Origin: Gemmatimonadales bacterium
GTDB taxonomy: Bacteria > Gemmatimonadota > Gemmatimonadetes > Gemmatimonadales > GWC2-71-9
Assembly: GCA_041615815.1 (NCBI GenBank)
Contig: JBFJCP010000006.1
Coordinates: 32,001-96,000 of the forward strand
DNA length: 64,000 bases
Direction: 5' to 3'
Position 1 is the first letter of the stretch; each line of letters opens with the position of its first letter. This document shows positions 4,921 through 12,947 of this stretch, piece after piece. The notes under the pieces were generated by a model that did no database searches, was not told the origin of the DNA, and saw only the letters and a program-made list of their open reading frames with translations. The position numbers and the translations under genes are program-made.

Positions 4921-6231
4921 GTGCCAGAGATTCTGCAGGCGGAGCTGACATGGACGGGAACACGCTTCGAGTCCGATATCGAGGTTGTCGTCTCCGATGA
5001 CGGTCGGATATACGCGGTGCGCAGGGCAAATACGAAGCCGTCCAAGCGACTGGACGGGCAAGCCCTCATGCCCGGCTTCATCAACGCGCATTCGCATGCA
5101 TTTCAGCGAGGGCTACGAGGATTAGGGGAACGATACGCAGAGGGCCCAGGCAGCTTCTGGACCTGGCGAGAGACGATGTATGATTTCATCGCGGGGCTGG
5201 ACGAGAACGCATTCCGAGAACTCTGCTACCAGTGCTTCGAGGAGATGCGCGACGCCGGGATAACGACCGTCGGCGAATTCCATTATCTGCATCACTCCTC
5301 GCACGATGCCGATCATCAGTTTGACGAAGCCGTGTTGGCAGCGGCGGCTGCCGCAGAGATTCGACTGGTCCTTCTCAGCGCCTACTACGCCACTGGCGGT
5401 ATCGGCAAGCCTCTAGAGGGGTCGCAATGCCGGTTCGCAACACACACACCAGAAGCATACTGGCTGCAGATGGACCGGCTGTCTGCGAAGCTTCACCACA
5501 ATACCCAGCGACTTGGCGCGGTCGTTCACAGTATTCGAGCAGCATCACTCGAAGACTGTAGCTCCATCTACCACGAAGCGAGACGGCGAAACCTCGTCTT
5601 CCATATGCATGTCGAAGAGCAGCGTCGGGAGATTGCGGAATCGATTCGTGTATATGGCAAGCCGCCGTTGGAACTGATCCACCACGTTCTGCAATTCCAT
5701 GACGGCATCACCGCCGTTCATTGTACGCACAGTAGTCAGGACCTGCTGCGACGCTTCTTGCAGGTCGGCGGTCTCGTGTGCGTATGTCCGCTCACGGAGG
5801 CAAACCTGGGAGACGGGATCCCCGATCTCGCCGACGTACCGGAAGTGCCCGGACAACTTTGTCTCGGCACCGACTCAAACGCCCGTGTGAGCATGTGGGA
5901 AGAAATGCGATGGGTGGAGTACGGGCAGCGACTGGTGCGAGAAGCCCGCGGCATGTTGAAGCGTGGTAGCGACGTCGCACAGTTGCTTCTCGAGGCCGCG
6001 ACCGCCACGGGTGCTCGGTCGCTAGGAGTGTCGGCTGGTCAAATTGCGCCGGGCTGTTGGGCCGACTTCATGACGATCGATCTGGACCATCCCTCGATTC
6101 GGGGGTGCGATCCCCAACACCTGCTGGATGCTCTGGTATTCGGCGCCGGTAACGAGGTGATCGTAGCGACGAGTGTTGGCGGACGCTGGCGGGACTCCCG
6201 AGCCAAGGCACAAGACCCTACGCCCAAGTGA
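4921..6231 (+). CDS. hutF: Formimidoylglutamate deiminase
   Basis: NAHSHAFQR, FWTWRETMY, VGEFHYLHH, HSIRA, HVEEQ, TEANLGDG, GTDSN; GTG start 2 bp after argE stop. Confidence 0.85.
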   Translation: MPEILQAELTWTGTRFESDIEVVVSDDGRIYAVRRANTKPSKRLDGQALMPGFINAHSHAFQRGLRGLGERYAEGPGSFWTWRETMYDFIAGLDENAFRELCYQCFEEMRDAGITTVGEFHYLHHSSHDADHQFDEAVLAAAAAAEIRLVLLSAYYATGGIGKPLEGSQCRFATHTPEAYWLQMDRLSAKLHHNTQRLGAVVHSIRAASLEDCSSIYHEARRRNLVFHMHVEEQRREIAESIRVYGKPPLELIHHVLQFHDGITAVHCTHSSQDLLRRFLQVGGLVCVCPLTEANLGDGIPDLADVPEVPGQLCLGTDSNARVSMWEEMRWVEYGQRLVREARGMLKRGSDVAQLLLEAATATGARSLGVSAGQIAPGCWADFMTIDLDHPSIRGCDPQHLLDALVFGAGNEVIVATSVGGRWRDSRAKAQDPTPK

Positions 6232-7447
6232 TGCCCGCCTGGGCGTCCGGTAAGTGTGCGGGATGCCCCGCTGCGCTGAGCACGTCCAGGATCCCCTGAA
6301 GATGGTCGTGTCCACGGGTCTGAATCACGAACTCGACCTCGACCGATGGCAGCCGCACGTTCGTGAACGCGCGCTGGTGACGCACCTCGAGAATATTGGC
6401 TTCGGCTTCAGCTAGGCAGGTGGTGACTTCGGCGAGCCCGCCAGGGAGATCCCGTAGTTCAACGAGCAGGCGCACCAGACGTCCCGTACGGACGAGCCCG
6501 CGTTGAATCACGGACGACAAGATCATCGGGTCGATATTACCTCCGCAAACCACGAGCGCGACTCGTCGACTGGCGAACCGGTCTGCGTGCTTGAGCACCG
6601 CGGCCAGCCCAGCCGCCCCAGCCCCCTCAACCACCATTTTCTCGCGTTCCAAGAACAAGAGAACACTTCGTTCGATCTCATCCTCCTCGACCAGCAGAAC
6701 GTCGCTCACCAATTGACGGATGATCGGGACGGTGAGCCGGCCGGGTACTTTCACCGCGATCCCCTCCGCGATCGTTGCCGTACCGCATTGGATGGGGTCT
6801 CCAGCCAATGCCTGCCGCATCGAGGGGAAACGCGCCGCCTCGACACCGATGATCTCGATACCCGGCTTGATACCGGTAGCGGCGGTCGCGATACCCGCGA
6901 TCAACCCGCCACCGCCGATCGGCACCACAATGACGTCCAGGTCCGGGTGCGCTTCGAGGAGCTCAACGGCTACCGTCCCCTGTCCTGTGATGATCTTCTC
7001 GTCGTCATACGGATGGATCAGGTGAAGACCGCGTTTCTTCGCGAGGGCGGTGGCATGCGCGCCAGCTTCATCAAGTCCGGCGCCCTCCAAGACGACCTCT
7101 GCTCCGAAGCTGCGTGTGCGCTCAACCTTGAGTGTGGGCGTGTACCGCGGCATCACGATGGTGGCCTCAATGCCGAGCCGCTGTGCGTGACGGGCAACCG
7201 CCTGGGCGTGATTACCGGCTGACATGGCAATGATGCCCGCGGCCCGCTCATGCTCGCTCATCGAGCGGAGTTTGAACACGGCGCCCCGCTCTTTGAACGA
7301 GGCAGTGTATTGGAGATTCTCCAGTTTGAGGATGATCTCGGCACGAGTGATCTCCGACAACACCCGGGAGCGGGAGGAGGGAGTGGTGCCGATCTCCTGC
7401 GCCACGATTCGGGCAGCGGTACGGATGTCGTCGACGTTCACAGACAT
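6218..7447 (-). CDS. ilvA: Threonine ammonia-lyase with C-terminal ACT domain
   Basis: KLENLQYTASFKERG (PLP Lys), SAGNHAQ, GGGGL, GGNID, ACT domain DLPGGL. Confidence 0.9.
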   Translation of the reverse strand: MSVNVDDIRTAARIVAQEIGTTPSSRSRVLSEITRAEIILKLENLQYTASFKERGAVFKLRSMSEHERAAGIIAMSAGNHAQAVARHAQRLGIEATIVMPRYTPTLKVERTRSFGAEVVLEGAGLDEAGAHATALAKKRGLHLIHPYDDEKIITGQGTVAVELLEAHPDLDVIVVPIGGGGLIAGIATAATGIKPGIEIIGVEAARFPSMRQALAGDPIQCGTATIAEGIAVKVPGRLTVPIIRQLVSDVLLVEEDEIERSVLLFLEREKMVVEGAGAAGLAAVLKHADRFASRRVALVVCGGNIDPMILSSVIQRGLVRTGRLVRLLVELRDLPGGLAEVTTCLAEAEANILEVRHQRAFTNVRLPSVEVEFVIQTRGHDHLQGILDVLSAAGHPAHLPDAQAGITWA

Positions 7448-7552: not shown

Positions 7553-7677
7553 AAAAAAACGAGGGGCGTCAGGCGAGCGGATGACCGGTCCGCTCTCGAG
7601 AGACCCATCGGCCCCTGTCCGACGAGTCCCGTCCGTGCCGTAATCGACACGATTTGCTGACTGCCCGACACCCCTCG
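7553..7677 (-). ncRNA. Unannotated structured RNA: four-way junction closed by a 15-bp stem, followed by U7
   Basis: P1 7663-7677/7560-7574, P2 7633-7652, P3 7600-7630, P4 7575-7595; all seven non-Watson-Crick pairs are G-U on the minus strand. Confidence 0.65.
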
Positions 7678-7755
7678 AAACTTGAATTTGAGTCCTGATG
7701 TCTAAGGCCGTTATGAAATGGTCATGAGCATCGCCGCGGCGCCGTCATTCCAGAC

Positions 7756-9339
7756 TCAAGGCCCAAGGCGGCGTTTCTGAGGCGCGGATCCGAGGCGCGG
7801 ACCAGCGGTGGACGCAACGTGGGCTGCCAGACGGTCGATCAAGGTCGTGAGCTGATCGTGTCGGGTCCTCACGGTTCGTGCGAAGATCGTGCGTGCCAAG
7901 CCCCAGGACGCGCCAACCGCGAGGGCTGCAGCCACAACACCGGCCACTGGGGCTTGAAGGGCCCCGGCTACCACCCCGAGCAGCGCGCCCCCTCCCCCCC
8001 CACCACCTCCCCCTACGATGCCACCGAACACACCGCCCGCGAAGTTACTCATGCGCTCGTCGATGGTGATGCGCGTCCGTCCGTCGCGCGGCATCACCAT
8101 GATGTGAATGTCCCGCCCACCGGCCCCCTGCCCCGCCCGAGCCGTGCTCCACGTCAGGGAGCGGCCGAGGGTACTCACGTGCCCCACGTCACGCAGCGTG
8201 GCTCGCACGTCCTCGACGAGGATCGCAAACTCCGAATCCGGCACCTCTCCATCGACGGTTCGTTCGAGCCGCAACGACGTCGGGGCGCCGGCAAGAAAGT
8301 TCTTCCGCGGCGGTGAGGGCTCCGGGCGCTGGAGCTGCCGGGCTGCCTGTTCTACTCGCTCCGGCGAGATTCCCACTTGGGCGGCGATTTGCTGTACCGC
8401 TCCAATGGAGAGCGCGCCTTCCTCTGTCGGCTGCTGAACCTGCATCTCGCTGGCGTGCTTGACGATGGATCGAACCTCGGACTCGCTATACCGGCGGCTA
8501 CGTCCGGTGGCGCTCATCAAGGCATCCACCAACTCCTTGGCGCTCGAGTAGCGGTCTTGCGGTCTGATGGCCATCGCTCGAACGAGCACCCGCTCGAGTG
8601 AGCCCGAGAGCTCATCGAGTCGCTTCCGATGCGACGCACTGGCGTCGAGGAATCTCCCCAGCTTGCTGGCTTCCTCGGTGGGCCAAAACCCGGGTGTCTC
8701 GCCGACCATCATCTCGTAGCACACACATGCCAAGCTGTAGACGTCCGTGCGCGCGTCCAGTTCCCGCACGGCTGCTGCCTGCTCGGGGCTCATGTAGCCG
8801 GGCGTTCCCAGGGGGAATCCGGTGCGGGTGAGCTCGATACCGCCCGCGGTGCTGATGGCTCGGGCGATCCCGAAGTCCGCCACCATCGCGTGGCCCTCGG
8901 AGAAGAGGATGTTCTCAGGCTTGAGGTCTCGATGGAGGACGCCCTGGCGATGAGCGTAGCTCACTGCGTCGCCCACGCGCACCGAGATTCCCAGTGCGTG
9001 GTCGACGTCCAGGGGACCCTCGCGGTTCAGCAGTGAGCGCAGCGATCCGCCATCGATGTATGGCATCACGTAGTACAGCCGGCTGTTCGCCTCGCCGGAG
9101 TCGTACAAGGGAACGATGTGTGGGTGCGTGAGCTTGGCCGCGATCTCGATTTCCTTGAGGAACCGCTCGGTACCGATGGACGCGGCGAGATCTGGCCGCA
9201 GCACCTTGACCGCCACTTGCCGATCGTGTTTGAGGTCCCGAGCCAAATACACGGTCGCCATTCCTCCCCGACCCAGGATGCGCTCGAGCGCATACCGCTT
9301 TGCCAAGGCGGAACGGAGAGTTTCGGGTATCTGCGTCAC
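7756..9339 (-). CDS. Ser/Thr protein kinase with C-terminal helical domain and Gly-rich membrane hairpin
   Basis: GRGGMATV, VAVK, HRDLKPEN, DFG, GTPGYMSPE; start placed at GTG 9339 (ORF extends to 9414). Confidence 0.9.
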   Translation of the reverse strand: MTQIPETLRSALAKRYALERILGRGGMATVYLARDLKHDRQVAVKVLRPDLAASIGTERFLKEIEIAAKLTHPHIVPLYDSGEANSRLYYVMPYIDGGSLRSLLNREGPLDVDHALGISVRVGDAVSYAHRQGVLHRDLKPENILFSEGHAMVADFGIARAISTAGGIELTRTGFPLGTPGYMSPEQAAAVRELDARTDVYSLACVCYEMMVGETPGFWPTEEASKLGRFLDASASHRKRLDELSGSLERVLVRAMAIRPQDRYSSAKELVDALMSATGRSRRYSESEVRSIVKHASEMQVQQPTEEGALSIGAVQQIAAQVGISPERVEQAARQLQRPEPSPPRKNFLAGAPTSLRLERTVDGEVPDSEFAILVEDVRATLRDVGHVSTLGRSLTWSTARAGQGAGGRDIHIMVMPRDGRTRITIDERMSNFAGGVFGGIVGGGGGGGGGALLGVVAGALQAPVAGVVAAALAVGASWGLARTIFARTVRTRHDQLTTLIDRLAAHVASTAGPRLGSAPQKRRLGP

Positions 9340-9588
9340 GCCACCAAGGTAGCCGGGGATGTGGCGCTTCGGAACGTCCAACTCTTCTCGGTGGAGCGCC
9401 ACGTAGCGATACATCTGCTACAAAGTAGGCCATGCCGCGCAGTGATGTGGCCGCAAGGCTCCGCTCCCGAACGACCGCCGAGGGCTGTGTGGTAGGGTGG
9501 TCCGATCACGCCAAGTGGCAATGACTTGTGCGCGGCCCGGTCTTGCTGTCACCGCAACATCAGGTCGTGGGCGGAGGCATCCCCCTCC

Positions 9589-9604: not shown

Positions 9605-9769
9605 CCTTCCCGCCACGCGTTCGTTTCGAAGCAGTGAGACGGGCATCGATTGAACCAACGTTCATACACAGTTCAGCTTCACGAAGACATGGTGTTTCAT
9701 CGTGTTGGATCTCAGGACCGCGGCACGTTTTGCGGCCACCACCTGGGACCCAGTCGGGGGGGTTGGAGC

Positions 9770-11473
9770 ATGCGGATAGGATTCATGGCTTTGCTCGGTC
9801 TGATCGGTGTGGGAGGGTGTGGTGGAGGTGGGGCGGCCGGACCTACGGCGCCCGACGCCCAGGTCTCCTTTGCCTCGCTGGATCTCACGCCCGCGTCGGT
9901 CGCGGTACCCGTCGGCGGCACCGTTCAGCTCGTGGCGACTCCGAGAGACTCGAACGGGAATCCCGTGGGTAGCCTTCCACCGGCCACGTTCTCGAGCAGT
10001 TCTCCAGAAACGGCTGGTGTGGACGACCAAGGTCTTGTGACCGGCAACTTGGTAGGGAGCGCCGTCATTACGGCGAGCGTCACTGCCTCGGGTGTCACCC
10101 ACACCGCGAGCGCAACGGTCGCGGTCACCTCGGGCGAACGGGCTCCGGCAACGGTTACCACCCCCGGCCTTGCCTTTGACCCCGCGTCACTCGCTGTGTC
10201 GGTAGGTGACACGGTCACGTGGGAATTTTCGGGTGCGGTCCACAACGTGACGTTCACTGAGGGAACGCCGCCCGGTGGAAACATTCCCGATCAGCAGATT
10301 GGGAGCGTAGTAGAACGGGAGTTCCCGGATCCCGGGACCTTCAAGTACGAGTGTACCATCCACGCTGGCATGGCGGGGGAAGTGGTGGTCACGACGGGAA
10401 CACCGAGCGTGTTCACCTCGCTCGCCGTGACGCCGACGACCCCCGCCATGGACATTGGACAGAGCGTCCAGTTGACGGTCACGGCGCTGGATCAGTTCGG
10501 CAACGCGATGCCGGGAATGCCAGCACCAACCTTCAGCGTGATCGACGGTTCGATAGCGTCGGTCGACGCCGGCGGGCTCGTGACGGGAGTGAGTGAAGGG
10601 ACCACGACGGTTGTGGCCTCGATCACCCACGACGGTGTGACCCAGACTGCGTCGGCAACGGTGAACGTACGCTCGCCCCAATCGGGCGCCGTGACCGTGA
10701 CAACCCCCAATTTGCGATTCGATCCCCCCACTATATCGATACCAGTTGGCGGGAGCGTGACGTGGCAGTTCTCGGAGGCGGTCCACAACGTGACATTCTC
10801 GGGCGCTGCACCTTCCGGTGGCAGCATCCCGGACCAGGATCCCGGAAACGCCGTTTCACGCTCCTTTACGGCTGCAGGCACCTATGGGTACGAGTGCACC
10901 CGCCATAGCGGGATGGTGGGAGAAGTGGTGGTGGAAGGAGGAGCGGGTCCTTCGGTCTTCAGTTCGCTCGCGCTGTCTCCAATGGAATGGGCGATGCCAC
11001 TAGGTGCGTTCAAGGAATTGACGGCGACGCCCCTCGATCAGAACGGGCTCCCCATTTCGGGACTCCCGGCGCCCTCGTTTACGAGTAGCGATCCGGCCGT
11101 GGCGTTCGTCGACGAGAGCGGCCTGGTCACGACCGGAGGTGAGGGTACCGTCGTTGTCACCGCCGCACTCACCGTCGACGGTGAGACACGAACGGCCACG
11201 ACATCGATCTCGGTGGCGCCGGCCACTGCCGCCGTCGTGCGAATTACTGCGGATTTGTACGAGCCGGATCCGGTCGACATTGCTCCCGGCGGGACGGTGA
11301 TTTGGGAAGTCGGTGGGTCGGCACACAACATGACCTTCGACCTTCCACCTGTCGAGGGAAATATCCCGGATACGGATCCCGGCAATGCCGTTGCCAGGAC
11401 CTTTGCCACCGAGAATGATTACGACTACGAATGCACACTCCATGGCGAGAAAGGACGAGTGCGCGTCCGATGA
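9770..11473 (+). CDS. Lipoprotein with three alternating Ig-like (Big_2) and cupredoxin domains
   Basis: Signal peptide ending VGGC; Big_2 motifs (FSSS.P..A.VD..GLVT); HNVTF..CTIHAGM, HNVTF..CTRHSGM, HNMTF..CTLHGE. Confidence 0.85.
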   Translation: MRIGFMALLGLIGVGGCGGGGAAGPTAPDAQVSFASLDLTPASVAVPVGGTVQLVATPRDSNGNPVGSLPPATFSSSSPETAGVDDQGLVTGNLVGSAVITASVTASGVTHTASATVAVTSGERAPATVTTPGLAFDPASLAVSVGDTVTWEFSGAVHNVTFTEGTPPGGNIPDQQIGSVVEREFPDPGTFKYECTIHAGMAGEVVVTTGTPSVFTSLAVTPTTPAMDIGQSVQLTVTALDQFGNAMPGMPAPTFSVIDGSIASVDAGGLVTGVSEGTTTVVASITHDGVTQTASATVNVRSPQSGAVTVTTPNLRFDPPTISIPVGGSVTWQFSEAVHNVTFSGAAPSGGSIPDQDPGNAVSRSFTAAGTYGYECTRHSGMVGEVVVEGGAGPSVFSSLALSPMEWAMPLGAFKELTATPLDQNGLPISGLPAPSFTSSDPAVAFVDESGLVTTGGEGTVVVTAALTVDGETRTATTSISVAPATAAVVRITADLYEPDPVDIAPGGTVIWEVGGSAHNMTFDLPPVEGNIPDTDPGNAVARTFATENDYDYECTLHGEKGRVRVR

Positions 11474-12567
11474 CGAAGCTATGGATCTTGACACCGGCTC
11501 TCTGTCTCGCTCTCGGTGTGACAGGGATAGAAGCCCAATCGCTGCTCGATCGTCCGCCGAACGTCTCGGGGGATTGGGTCGCCAACGCGGGCACGGTACA
11601 GTTCAACTTTCTCCACCGGTTCATGGTAAGTGACGCCCCCGTCCGGAAGATCAGCAATTTCCCCACTTTCCTGATTGGTGTGGGTCTGCCAGGAGCGCTG
11701 ATGGTTGGCGCGCATTATGCCACCAACTCGACGCTCGCTCCTCGTTTCCCCAACGAGTGGGAGTTCTTTGCCCGTCTGGCGCCATTGTCCGAAGATCGCG
11801 GGGCGCCGATCGATCTCGGGGGTCAAGTCGGATACAACCTGGCTGCAGAAGGCCTGGACGGTGAGCTCTCCGTGGCCAAGCGGGTAGGACCGCTTCGGCT
11901 CATCGCCGCGGCCCGAGTGCTTGCAGATCCCTTTGCAGAGGGCGAGGTGCTCTTCGCCATGGGTGGAGGGGGCACGTTACGAGTTAGCCGGTACCTTGCC
12001 CTCGCCGGTGATATTGCAGGTCTCACCAAGAGGGACGAGGATCGCGGCGAGAAGCCCGCTTGGAGCGCCGGCGTGCATCTTGCCATCCCCAACACCCCGC
12101 ATACGCTATCTCTCCAGGCCACCAACACGAATACAGCGACGCTCCAAGGCCTTTCCCGCGGTGACAGCGAGATTCGTTACGGTTTCGAGTTCACGGTTCC
12201 TGTCACGCTGTCGCGGTTCTTTGGGCGGCGACGCCCGCCACGCAGACCGCAACCGACAGCAGACTCGCTCCGCGCACCTTTGGTTGCCCAGGAGGCGGAC
12301 TCAACGGGCGAAGTGATCGGCACCGTCATTCGCCAAATGAAGTTTCCGCAGAATCGGCTCGAGATCGAAGTGGGAACGACGATCGTGTGGGAAAACGCGG
12401 ATCCACTGGCCCACACCGTCACTGCCGACGACGGCAGCTTTGACTCGGGGTTGATCCAGCCCGGTGAGAAATGGAGCTACACGTTCACGCGGGTTGGGGA
12501 CTACAGCTTCTTCTGTACTCCCCACCCGTTCATGACCGGGATCGTGATTGTACGAGGCACGCCATGA
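11470..12567 (+). CDS. Outer-membrane beta-barrel (DUF5777-like) fused to C-terminal amicyanin-like cupredoxin
   Basis: Signal peptide; amphipathic strands with FLHRF, HTLSLQATN, YGFEF; Arg/Pro linker; AHTVT..CTPHPFM; ATGA overlap with upstream gene. Confidence 0.75.
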   Translation: MTKLWILTPALCLALGVTGIEAQSLLDRPPNVSGDWVANAGTVQFNFLHRFMVSDAPVRKISNFPTFLIGVGLPGALMVGAHYATNSTLAPRFPNEWEFFARLAPLSEDRGAPIDLGGQVGYNLAAEGLDGELSVAKRVGPLRLIAAARVLADPFAEGEVLFAMGGGGTLRVSRYLALAGDIAGLTKRDEDRGEKPAWSAGVHLAIPNTPHTLSLQATNTNTATLQGLSRGDSEIRYGFEFTVPVTLSRFFGRRRPPRRPQPTADSLRAPLVAQEADSTGEVIGTVIRQMKFPQNRLEIEVGTTIVWENADPLAHTVTADDGSFDSGLIQPGEKWSYTFTRVGDYSFFCTPHPFMTGIVIVRGTP

Positions 12568-12947
12568 GGTCGAGACTCTGGGGGATCCTGGCGGCCACCA
12601 TCGTGGCGGCCTGCTTTTCGGAGCGCACCGACACGACGAGTCCACCGCTGCAGGGTACGTGCGACGTTTCGCTTCCAGCGGAGCTGCTCGGATCCACCAT
12701 TGTCGCGATCCGTAACTTCAGCTTTGAGCCGGCCCAAGTGCGGGTCGCAGCCGGTGGGACGGTCACCTGGGTGAACTGTGCCCCGGCGGACGAACCGGCG
12801 CACACGAGTACGTCGGATCAGGGCGTATGGGGGACCGAGCTCCTACCCCCGGGGAGTTTTGCCAGCTTTACCTTCACCCAGGCAGGAGCGTTCCCGTATC
12901 ACTGCGAGCCCCATCCGTTCATGCAGGCAACTGTGGTTGTCCAATAG
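12564..12947 (+). CDS. Small cupredoxin (plastocyanin/amicyanin-like) lipoprotein
   Basis: Lipobox IVAAC; AHTST..CEPHPFM; ATGA overlap. Confidence 0.85.
   Translation: MRSRLWGILAATIVAACFSERTDTTSPPLQGTCDVSLPAELLGSTIVAIRNFSFEPAQVRVAAGGTVTWVNCAPADEPAHTSTSDQGVWGTELLPPGSFASFTFTQAGAFPYHCEPHPFMQATVVVQ

Follow-up and report, generated by a model that had tools for sequence, protein, structure and literature searches.

The RNA locus lies on the minus strand of the window (the whole 64,000-nucleotide stretch of Gemmatimonadales DNA analyzed here; its source genome is denoted G000), between a gene for a Ser/Thr protein kinase upstream (7756..9414, minus strand) and ilvA downstream (6218..7447, minus strand), which encodes a threonine ammonia-lyase with one ACT domain (PRK07334, 582 bits, cut-off 496; TIGR01127, 437 bits, cut-off 379). 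The core of the RNA (7560..7677, minus strand), delineated by folding, a helix check and covariation, is a four-way junction of the helices P1 to P4. The closing helix P1 consists of 15 base pairs, two of them G-U, between positions 7677-7663 and 7574-7560; the inner CGGGC of its 5' strand (7663..7677) is nearly invariant across the RNA family described below (columns 11-15 conserved in 27-28 of the 28 aligned members). The linker J1/2 together with the start of P2 (7653..7662) contains A16, G22 and A24, conserved in 25, 26 and 27 of the 28 members, respectively; according to the pair tables, part of this region forms the base of P2 in most members, and this pairing is partly lost in the window copy. 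P2 (7633..7652) is a hairpin of 8 bp, including two G-U pairs, with the loop AUUA, and is connected by the dinucleotide AC (7632-7631) to P3 (7600..7630), a 12 bp hairpin with three G-U pairs and the loop ACAGGGG. The linker J3/4, UCGA (7599-7596), is 4 nt long in all 28 members, with G as the third base in 24. P4 (7595-7575; 7 bp, loop CCGGUCA) directly adjoins P1, the 3' strand of which, with a run of seven U (7559-7553), makes up the predicted 3' end (7553..7574).

In an earlier note on this DNA, made from the sequence alone, the same four helices were proposed, with seven G-U pairs and no mismatches over the minus strand of 7553-7677; the helix check found the helix lengths, loops, linkers and U7 run as described there, and reproduced the pair count, the one element absent from that description being the AC linker between P2 and P3. 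The minimum free energy of the RNA is −73.9 kcal/mol (z = −6.91), and none of 200 shuffled sequences was equally stable. Over a 141-nt stretch, the minus strand folds to −75.4 kcal/mol vs. −53.3 kcal/mol for the plus strand, which is thus weaker by about 22 kcal/mol. The locus is present in one copy in the 4.19-Mb genome, so a dispersed REP- or MITE-like repeat, copies of which were looked for, is rejected as an explanation. The fold is real.

A DNA search of 101 relatives yielded one clear homologue, and the family was extended by three rounds of covariance models to a total of 29 loci, namely 28 loci in 27 genomes of a single Gemmatimonadota family and one metagenome contig. With the covariance model, the RNA was detected in at least 24 of 150 genomes of this Gemmatimonadota family, a lower bound given that the best 24 of about 2,000 candidates were scored per genome. 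In a draw from the phylum, it was found in 9 of 70 genomes of this family and in 0 of 79 from other families, and in a draw from the class, in 2 of 8 and 0 of 33, respectively; it was not found in five named Gemmatimonadota genomes. A deeper search of 15 further genomes of the family recovered the RNA in one, as a weak member (G022). There is one true copy per genome, except for G460, which has two. A leucyl-tRNA synthetase (LeuRS) from the same family is 75% identical to that of G000, compared to 60-65% for the five named Gemmatimonadota records and 43-53% for four outgroups, which places the lineage in Gemmatimonadota.

Several model matches were discarded. L042 and L043 were dropped before counting, L203 lies inside a LeuRS gene, and L221 and L222 (family f3) are repeat or coding sequence with no promoter box; L221:1501-1605 (G092, f3), a false match of the model, is intergenic and consists of a 23-nt hairpin that occurs three times with little change, the whole array being closed by a stem. 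Scans for the P4 motif as a pattern returned four loci in viral contigs and two extra matches in 401 genomes of the phylum, all chance hairpins, along with at least 119 loci in genome contigs, none of which is a true member (the best scores 31 bits, with broken helices). A metagenome scan gave two loci, the member L176 and the non-member L177.

The 28 aligned members share a mean pairwise identity of 53%; the median folding z in the family is −4.6. In a structure-blind MAFFT alignment, 21 of the 27 pairs change on both sides and 86% of the cells are paired; in a model-fitted alignment, both-side changes occur in 24 of 30 pairs. None of 500 shuffles scored as high, and partners slid along the alignment pair in 33-47% of cells vs. 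86-87% for the real pairs; the members are kin, so that these counts are not to be read as probabilities. Both-side changes are present in all four helices, including all seven pairs of P4. The covariation among homologues that the earlier note proposed to look for is thus apparent and, together with the single-copy status and the lack of an Rfam match detailed below, bears out its suggestion of a novel structured RNA maintained by selection at the RNA level.

Conservation centers on the junction, that is, the top five pairs of P1, A16, G22-C70, A24, G73-C136, G141 and three G-C pairs of P4. Only three of the conserved positions are unpaired (A16, purine 21 and G141). The peripheral parts are variable: P2 spans 12-39 nt inside its basal pairs, P3 has conserved basal pairs and a free length of 6-29 nt inside them, and the loop L4 ranges from 3 to 8 nt. 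When shared loop motifs were looked for, no 5-mer in P3 or L4 and no 4-mer in L4 recurred in more than 3 of the 28 members, and no signal of pseudoknot or tertiary pairing was found among the linker and loop columns.

Comparison to known RNA classes yielded no assignment. No family of Rfam 15 reached its gathering score in the window; the four matches with E ≤ 10 between 7400 and 7800 score 14-17 bits vs. cut-offs of 39-80, and over the 28 member loci (searched as 20 and 8) none came near a cut-off, so that the Rfam scan suggested in the earlier note identifies no known family. Judged by these sequence searches, the RNA family is uncatalogued, and a member of no Rfam family. The literature searched, with subscription papers and supplementary RNA-motif tables outside its scope, contained no description of either the RNA or its promoter box. 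The RNA is neither a tRNA nor the SRP RNA, the consensus of which it did not match in the earlier note either: ARAGORN makes no call at C6:39556-39679 and the loops share no motif and vary in length, and the genome encodes a separate SRP RNA (RF00169 above cut-off in 5 of 5 carriers examined, on contig C3 in G000). The five carriers, G000, G002, G032, G108 and G111, are 91-96% complete, and neither 6S RNA (RF00013) nor Hfq was found in them. A 6S RNA was rejected on the grounds that the molecule is a four-way junction rather than a long rod with a central bubble; RF00013 was found in 0 of 5 carriers and in 5 of 14 genomes in the control search, although divergent 6S RNAs often escape this model. 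A bacterial Y RNA (YrlA) was rejected given the lack of a tRNA-like T loop and of Ro60 (TROVE, PF05731; 0 of 5 carriers, control 2 of 14), an Hfq-dependent base-pairing sRNA given the lack of Hfq (PF17209; 0 of 5, control 5 of 14) and of a conserved single-stranded seed, and a CsrB/Rsm-type protein sponge given the absence of repeated GGA loop motifs.

The earlier note missed the promoter. On the minus strand at 7685..7728, three TTCA-type repeats with an 11-bp period, CTCA (7728-7725), TTCA (7717-7714) and CTTA (7706-7703), precede a −10-like hexamer, CAAATT (7690-7685); the consensus of this predicted promoter box is TTCA-N7-TTCA-N7-TTCA-N12-TAnnnT. With the matrix built from the family, the window box scores 19.8 in the leave-one-out test, compared to a null 99th percentile of 2.3, and is the best site in the window; the members served as the training set of the matrix, with each left out in turn in this one test and included in later ones. 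By the same leave-one-out measure, the box lies upstream of 24 of the 28 members (scores 8.9-31.5). The remaining four carry it about 100 nt further upstream (scores 25-29), so sigma-54, considered as an alternative for these seemingly box-less members, was rejected. At the 29th locus, in G022, the box scores 29.1, and at three false model matches the scores are −1.6, −4.6 and −2.1. A scan for the sigma-70 consensus found nothing. Overlap of the −35 region by direct repeats with a period of 11 bp is typical of OmpR/PhoB activators. In the window, a second TTCA box (9650-9693, plus strand, score 17.8) is located at the start of an operon with cupredoxin and Ig-domain genes (9650-12947), the true start codon of which is probably downstream of the listed ORF start. 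On the plus strand at 7677-7705, a pair of motifs resembling the ECF-sigma consensus overlaps the RNA promoter and points into the 3' end of the kinase gene; it is not found at the same place in G002.

From the spacing, the RNA is predicted to start at or near 7677, which is base 8 downstream of the −10 hexamer. For 25 members, the median distance from the hexamer to the start of P1 is likewise 8, with only 14 of the 25 falling within 6-9 nt, and P1 length is not significantly correlated with this distance (rho = 0.31, p = 0.13). The RNA is very probably a stand-alone gene with a TTCA-repeat promoter.

The neighbors of the RNA share no function. The kinase gene adjoins the RNA also in G002, but the RNA is missing behind the orthologue in G001. 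Of the 28 loci, 9 have a convergent gene next to the RNA and 17 a same-strand gene, the products of the latter being unrelated, while 2 are unclear; ilvA is directly downstream in one locus only, that of the window, where it starts 105 nt after the RNA on the same strand and lacks a TTCA box of its own (best score −0.2). Genes of the CheR type follow the RNA in two genera. In the metagenome copy (L176:191-3857), genes for threonine ammonia-lyase and a C39-peptidase-like protein are kept in a different order, with ilvA two genes upstream. A riboswitch or attenuator was rejected on these orientations and unrelated products. No conserved antiterminator was detected, and no leader peptide either, the members having neither ATG positions nor frame lengths in common. 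The earlier note had envisaged an attenuator or switch for threonine deaminase, in which GUCAG would pair with CUGAC and AGGGG with CCCCU; the probability of these pairings in the folding ensemble is 0.0, their formation would cost about 13 and 25 kcal/mol, respectively, and the sequences required are present in only 1 and 2 of the 28 members, that is, they are not conserved. The RNA is not an ilvA attenuator.

A separate terminator, i.e. a GC hairpin with a U tract no more than 17 nt from P1, was identified in 16 of the 28 members vs. 11 of 400 random windows. The U7 tail pointed out in the earlier note is present in the window but is not a family trait: only this copy has a U7 run immediately after P1, and it lacks the separate hairpin. 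P1 with U7 is not called by a simple terminator scan. With two loci left out, the next gene is on the same strand for 10 of the 11 members without a terminator, compared to 7 of the 15 with one (p = 0.036). Given that the window copy has no separate hairpin and that ilvA lacks a dedicated box, transcription could continue into this gene. The terminator stem CCGCCC/GGGCGG is kept across genera (e.g. L182, L183 and L196), and the 5' arm is often CCGCCC; this sequence is identical to the P4-P1 3' strand, which is unusual for a terminator. Antitermination through pairing of the CCGCCC arm with P1 was considered and rejected, because the arm does not follow changes in P1 (G225 and the second copy in G460, G460b) and many carriers face convergent genes.

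The TTCA box is not confined to the RNA. Of the 38 sites scoring above 18 in G000, 31 fall between genes, in a genome that counts as 79% genic; control matrices with periods of 9, 10, 12 and 13 gave 0-5 intergenic sites and those with shifted −10 spacings 10-15. Of 20 genomes examined per family, 13 in this family, 10 in f3 and 3 in f2 have a box with no more than one mismatch, compared to 3 of 61 in a reversed control. The genes behind the box were scanned in two sets (31 and 13 genes, of which 12 and 7, respectively, had no family at the thresholds used). In G000, these include genes for Hsp20, universal stress proteins, CBS proteins, a phosphoribosyltransferase, FtsH and a LonB-like protease, as well as cytochromes c, a tRNA-editing domain, a P-type ATPase and a subunit of haem-copper oxidase, and a clade II nosZ cluster with a Sec-dependent nitrous-oxide reductase (TIGR04246, 870 bits); some of them occupy later positions in predicted operons or are preceded by a weaker site (the sites closest to nosZ and the oxidase score 13.9 and 14.4, respectively). 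The nosZ region (L206:11400-15001 and L223:445-5037, G000 C29:41465-48037) comprises a cytochrome c gene, a porin-like gene and clade II nosZ-nosD, with boxes scoring 22.6 and 13.9. A link to RtcB/archease was rejected, as RtcB, though encoded in 4 of 5 carriers, is not preceded by a box in G000.

A candidate regulator and sensor are encoded next to a box. At L206:8051-11416 (G000 C29:38050-41415), a haem-GAF kinase (C29:38050-39285), a TTCA box, an apparently leaderless OmpR-type regulator (C29:39347-40030) and a CusS-like kinase follow one another. This arrangement looks like part of an as yet undescribed oxygen-sensing regulon, with some 30-40 sites in G000. In G000 as in G037, the box ends 8 nt upstream of the regulator's start codon, a spacing from the −10 hexamer equal to that of the P1 start in the window RNA, and the order of kinase, box and regulator recurs in G037. 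The GAF domain of the upstream kinase matches the DosT/DosS GAF-A domain (E = 2 × 10−39). It keeps His118 and Tyr140, the counterparts in the alignment of the haem ligand and the distal tyrosine described in PMC4082495, with the residue numbering deduced from the construct. The kinase is accordingly predicted to be a DosS/DosT-like haem-GAF sensor. Boxes occur within 200 nt of the kinase in G154, G174, G014, G127 and G040. The kinase is encoded in 121 of the 150 family genomes, that is, in 24 of 24 RNA-positive genomes vs. 97 of 126 others (Fisher p = 0.0045, for genomes that are kin and hence not independent). The RNA, found in only 24 of the 150 genomes though 121 have the kinase, and in 1 of the 15 searched more deeply, is not a required part of the regulon. 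No relative of the regulator was found in viral contigs. The best matches of the regulator (TIGR01387, 232 bits) and the downstream kinase (TIGR01386, 221 bits) are heavy-metal CusR/CusS models, both below cut-off, and G000 holds four other OmpR-like genes, so that the actual regulator and signal could differ from those proposed here.

Boxes are followed by other folded RNAs as well. In four loci, L192:1610-1706 (minus strand), L193:1396-1500 (plus), L196:482-596 (minus) and L199:1612-1726 (minus), promoter and core are separated by an additional folded 5' domain of roughly 100 nt. Its first hairpin is similar to P2, but the domain goes unrecognized by the core model, so that a tandem duplication is not shown. 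A second, different folded RNA of about 195-215 nt came to light when boxes were inspected in three genomes without the four-way-junction RNA; it was found behind the TTCA box in 4 of the 150 family genomes, in none of which the model R3 detects the four-way-junction family (L275:1550-1745, plus strand, in G037; L276 in G461; L277 in G103; L278 in G473; box scores 27.8-31.1). This RNA ends in a GC hairpin and U run and has invariant loop blocks; 6 of its 51 predicted pairs change on both sides among the four sequences, and the two of the four sequences that were tested had no Rfam match. At L266:215-355 (minus strand, G127), a strong box (26.0) with no likely reading frame after it precedes several hairpins in a row (z = −2.5), which may represent a third RNA.

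The reading we favor, to which we give about an even chance, is that the RNA is switched on by the OmpR-type regulator at low oxygen and acts in trans through a protein bound at the conserved junction. The haem-GAF kinase would sense low O2 (or NO or CO) and activate the regulator, which would bind the TTCA repeats, the box being its binding site. An RNA of about 120 nt (about 150 nt with a terminator hairpin) would then be made, and, with its 5' end in the closing helix, would probably be stable and accumulate, serving as decoy or scaffold to a protein that recognizes the top of P1 and the junction. A decoy or scaffold appears to be the simplest role because there is no conserved seed, Hfq and Ro60 were not found, the SRP RNA is separate and few conserved bases are unpaired. 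Low oxygen itself is a probable signal for the regulon, to judge from its predicted sensor and gene content. That the regulon answers metal or envelope stress through the CusS-like kinase, a point that concerns the signal alone, is rather unlikely: the heavy-metal models are the best family matches, albeit below cut-off, and the cupredoxin operon at 9650 is also boxed, but the haem-GAF kinase directly precedes the regulator in G000 and G037, the five additional genomes have boxes close to this kinase, and the regulon includes nosZ, cytochromes, Hsp20 and universal stress proteins.

The other readings concern the action of the RNA. It might be a cis-acting leader, in which case transcripts initiated at the box would extend past the fold into the neighboring gene, and the folded region plus U tract would attenuate or stabilize the mRNA, that of ilvA in the window, at least where the separate terminator has been lost. 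Such a role would fit the P1-U7 arrangement of the window copy with its box-less ilvA 105 nt on, the predominance of same-strand genes after terminator-less members and the CheR-type genes in two genera; we nonetheless consider it unlikely, because nine loci face a convergent gene, the same-strand neighbors share no function, no alternative fold is accessible or conserved, and the terminator stem ignores the P1 changes in G225 and G460b. Two-component-controlled, oxygen-linked sRNAs are on record (PMC3672276, PMC5360333), and the 3' strand of P4 is C-rich in the consensus, so one helix, e.g. P4, could open to pair with mRNAs as in PcrZ or DrrS. The absence of a conserved single-stranded seed, the covariation of all seven P4 pairs, by which the helix rather than one strand is kept, the failure to find Hfq in 5 of 5 carriers and the lack of a significant complementary site in G000 (best E = 0.91) make such pairing improbable. 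Quite improbable, too, is a dormancy RNA that binds RNA polymerase or the ribosome in place of 6S or Ms1 RNA: the stress-regulon promoter, the closed 5'-3' stem and the absence of RF00013 from all five carriers, with the control positive in 5 of 14 genomes, would agree with it, but the compact junction is not the long rod with a central bubble, the occurrence is patchy, and that absence counts for less as divergent 6S RNAs are often missed. The clustering of conservation at the junction, as in aptamers, could also indicate a small-molecule-binding RNA or a ribozyme acting in trans; with only three conserved unpaired positions, no signal of tertiary pairing and no Rfam ribozyme or riboswitch match at the member loci, we regard this as highly improbable.

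With the trans-acting, protein-bound RNA as the preferred reading, a broader proposal can be put forward tentatively, as a possibility of which we are doubtful: Gemmatimonadota of this family may possess an undescribed circuit in which a DosS-like haem kinase and an OmpR-type regulator that reads the triple TTCA would drive N2O respiration, dormancy genes and protein-binding effector RNAs, with a modular RNA slot occupied by the four-way junction, by the core with the extra 5' domain (4 genomes) or by the second RNA (4 genomes). Most orphan structured RNAs give no clue to the conditions of their expression; this one comes with a promoter, a candidate regulator and sensor, and a regulon. The same box precedes the clade II nosZ cluster in G000 and, if it is the oxygen switch, would give access to the control of N2O consumption in these bacteria. 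In a lineage in which searches for Hfq, Ro60 and 6S RNA came up empty, a compact junction RNA whose loops vary freely would suggest an RNA-binding protein still to be discovered.

The RNA is reminiscent of several known systems. tRNA and YrlA are built of a closing stem with three hairpins; the RNA described here shares this plan, with P4 adjoining P1 and P2 adjoining P3, but lacks T-loop, D-loop and anticodon-loop conservation, and no Ro60 was found in any of the five carriers. Like CsrB, RsmY, RsmZ and GlmY, which are RNAs of the protein-decoy type, it appears to be stand-alone, activated by a two-component system and, as proposed, acting through protein binding; unlike the CsrB/Rsm RNAs, it has no repeated GGA loops, and its conserved GG lies inside P4. 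The regulon resembles the DosR type in its haem-GAF kinase with proximal His and distal Tyr, but the adjacent regulator is of the OmpR/PhoB type, in contrast to DosR, a NarL/LuxR-type regulator. PcrZ of Rhodobacter sphaeroides is an sRNA under the response regulator of an oxygen/redox regulon with photosynthesis mRNAs as targets (PMC3672276); the present RNA has no conserved seed, and no homology between the two was found. A further parallel in control is with DrrS (MTS1338) of M. tuberculosis, a DosR-regulated sRNA of about 110 nt, cut from a longer precursor and predicted to form a short 5' hairpin and a long imperfect stem, with its first nucleotide in a stem that stabilizes it (PMC5360333). 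Both RNAs, that of the window by prediction, have a promoter activated by a two-component system whose sensor has the same haem GAF-A domain, and a 5' end in a stem, shown to stabilize DrrS; there is no Rfam or sequence match between them, and the RNA described here differs from DrrS in being a four-way junction with its own terminator, the candidate regulator of which is of the OmpR type with 11-bp direct repeats.
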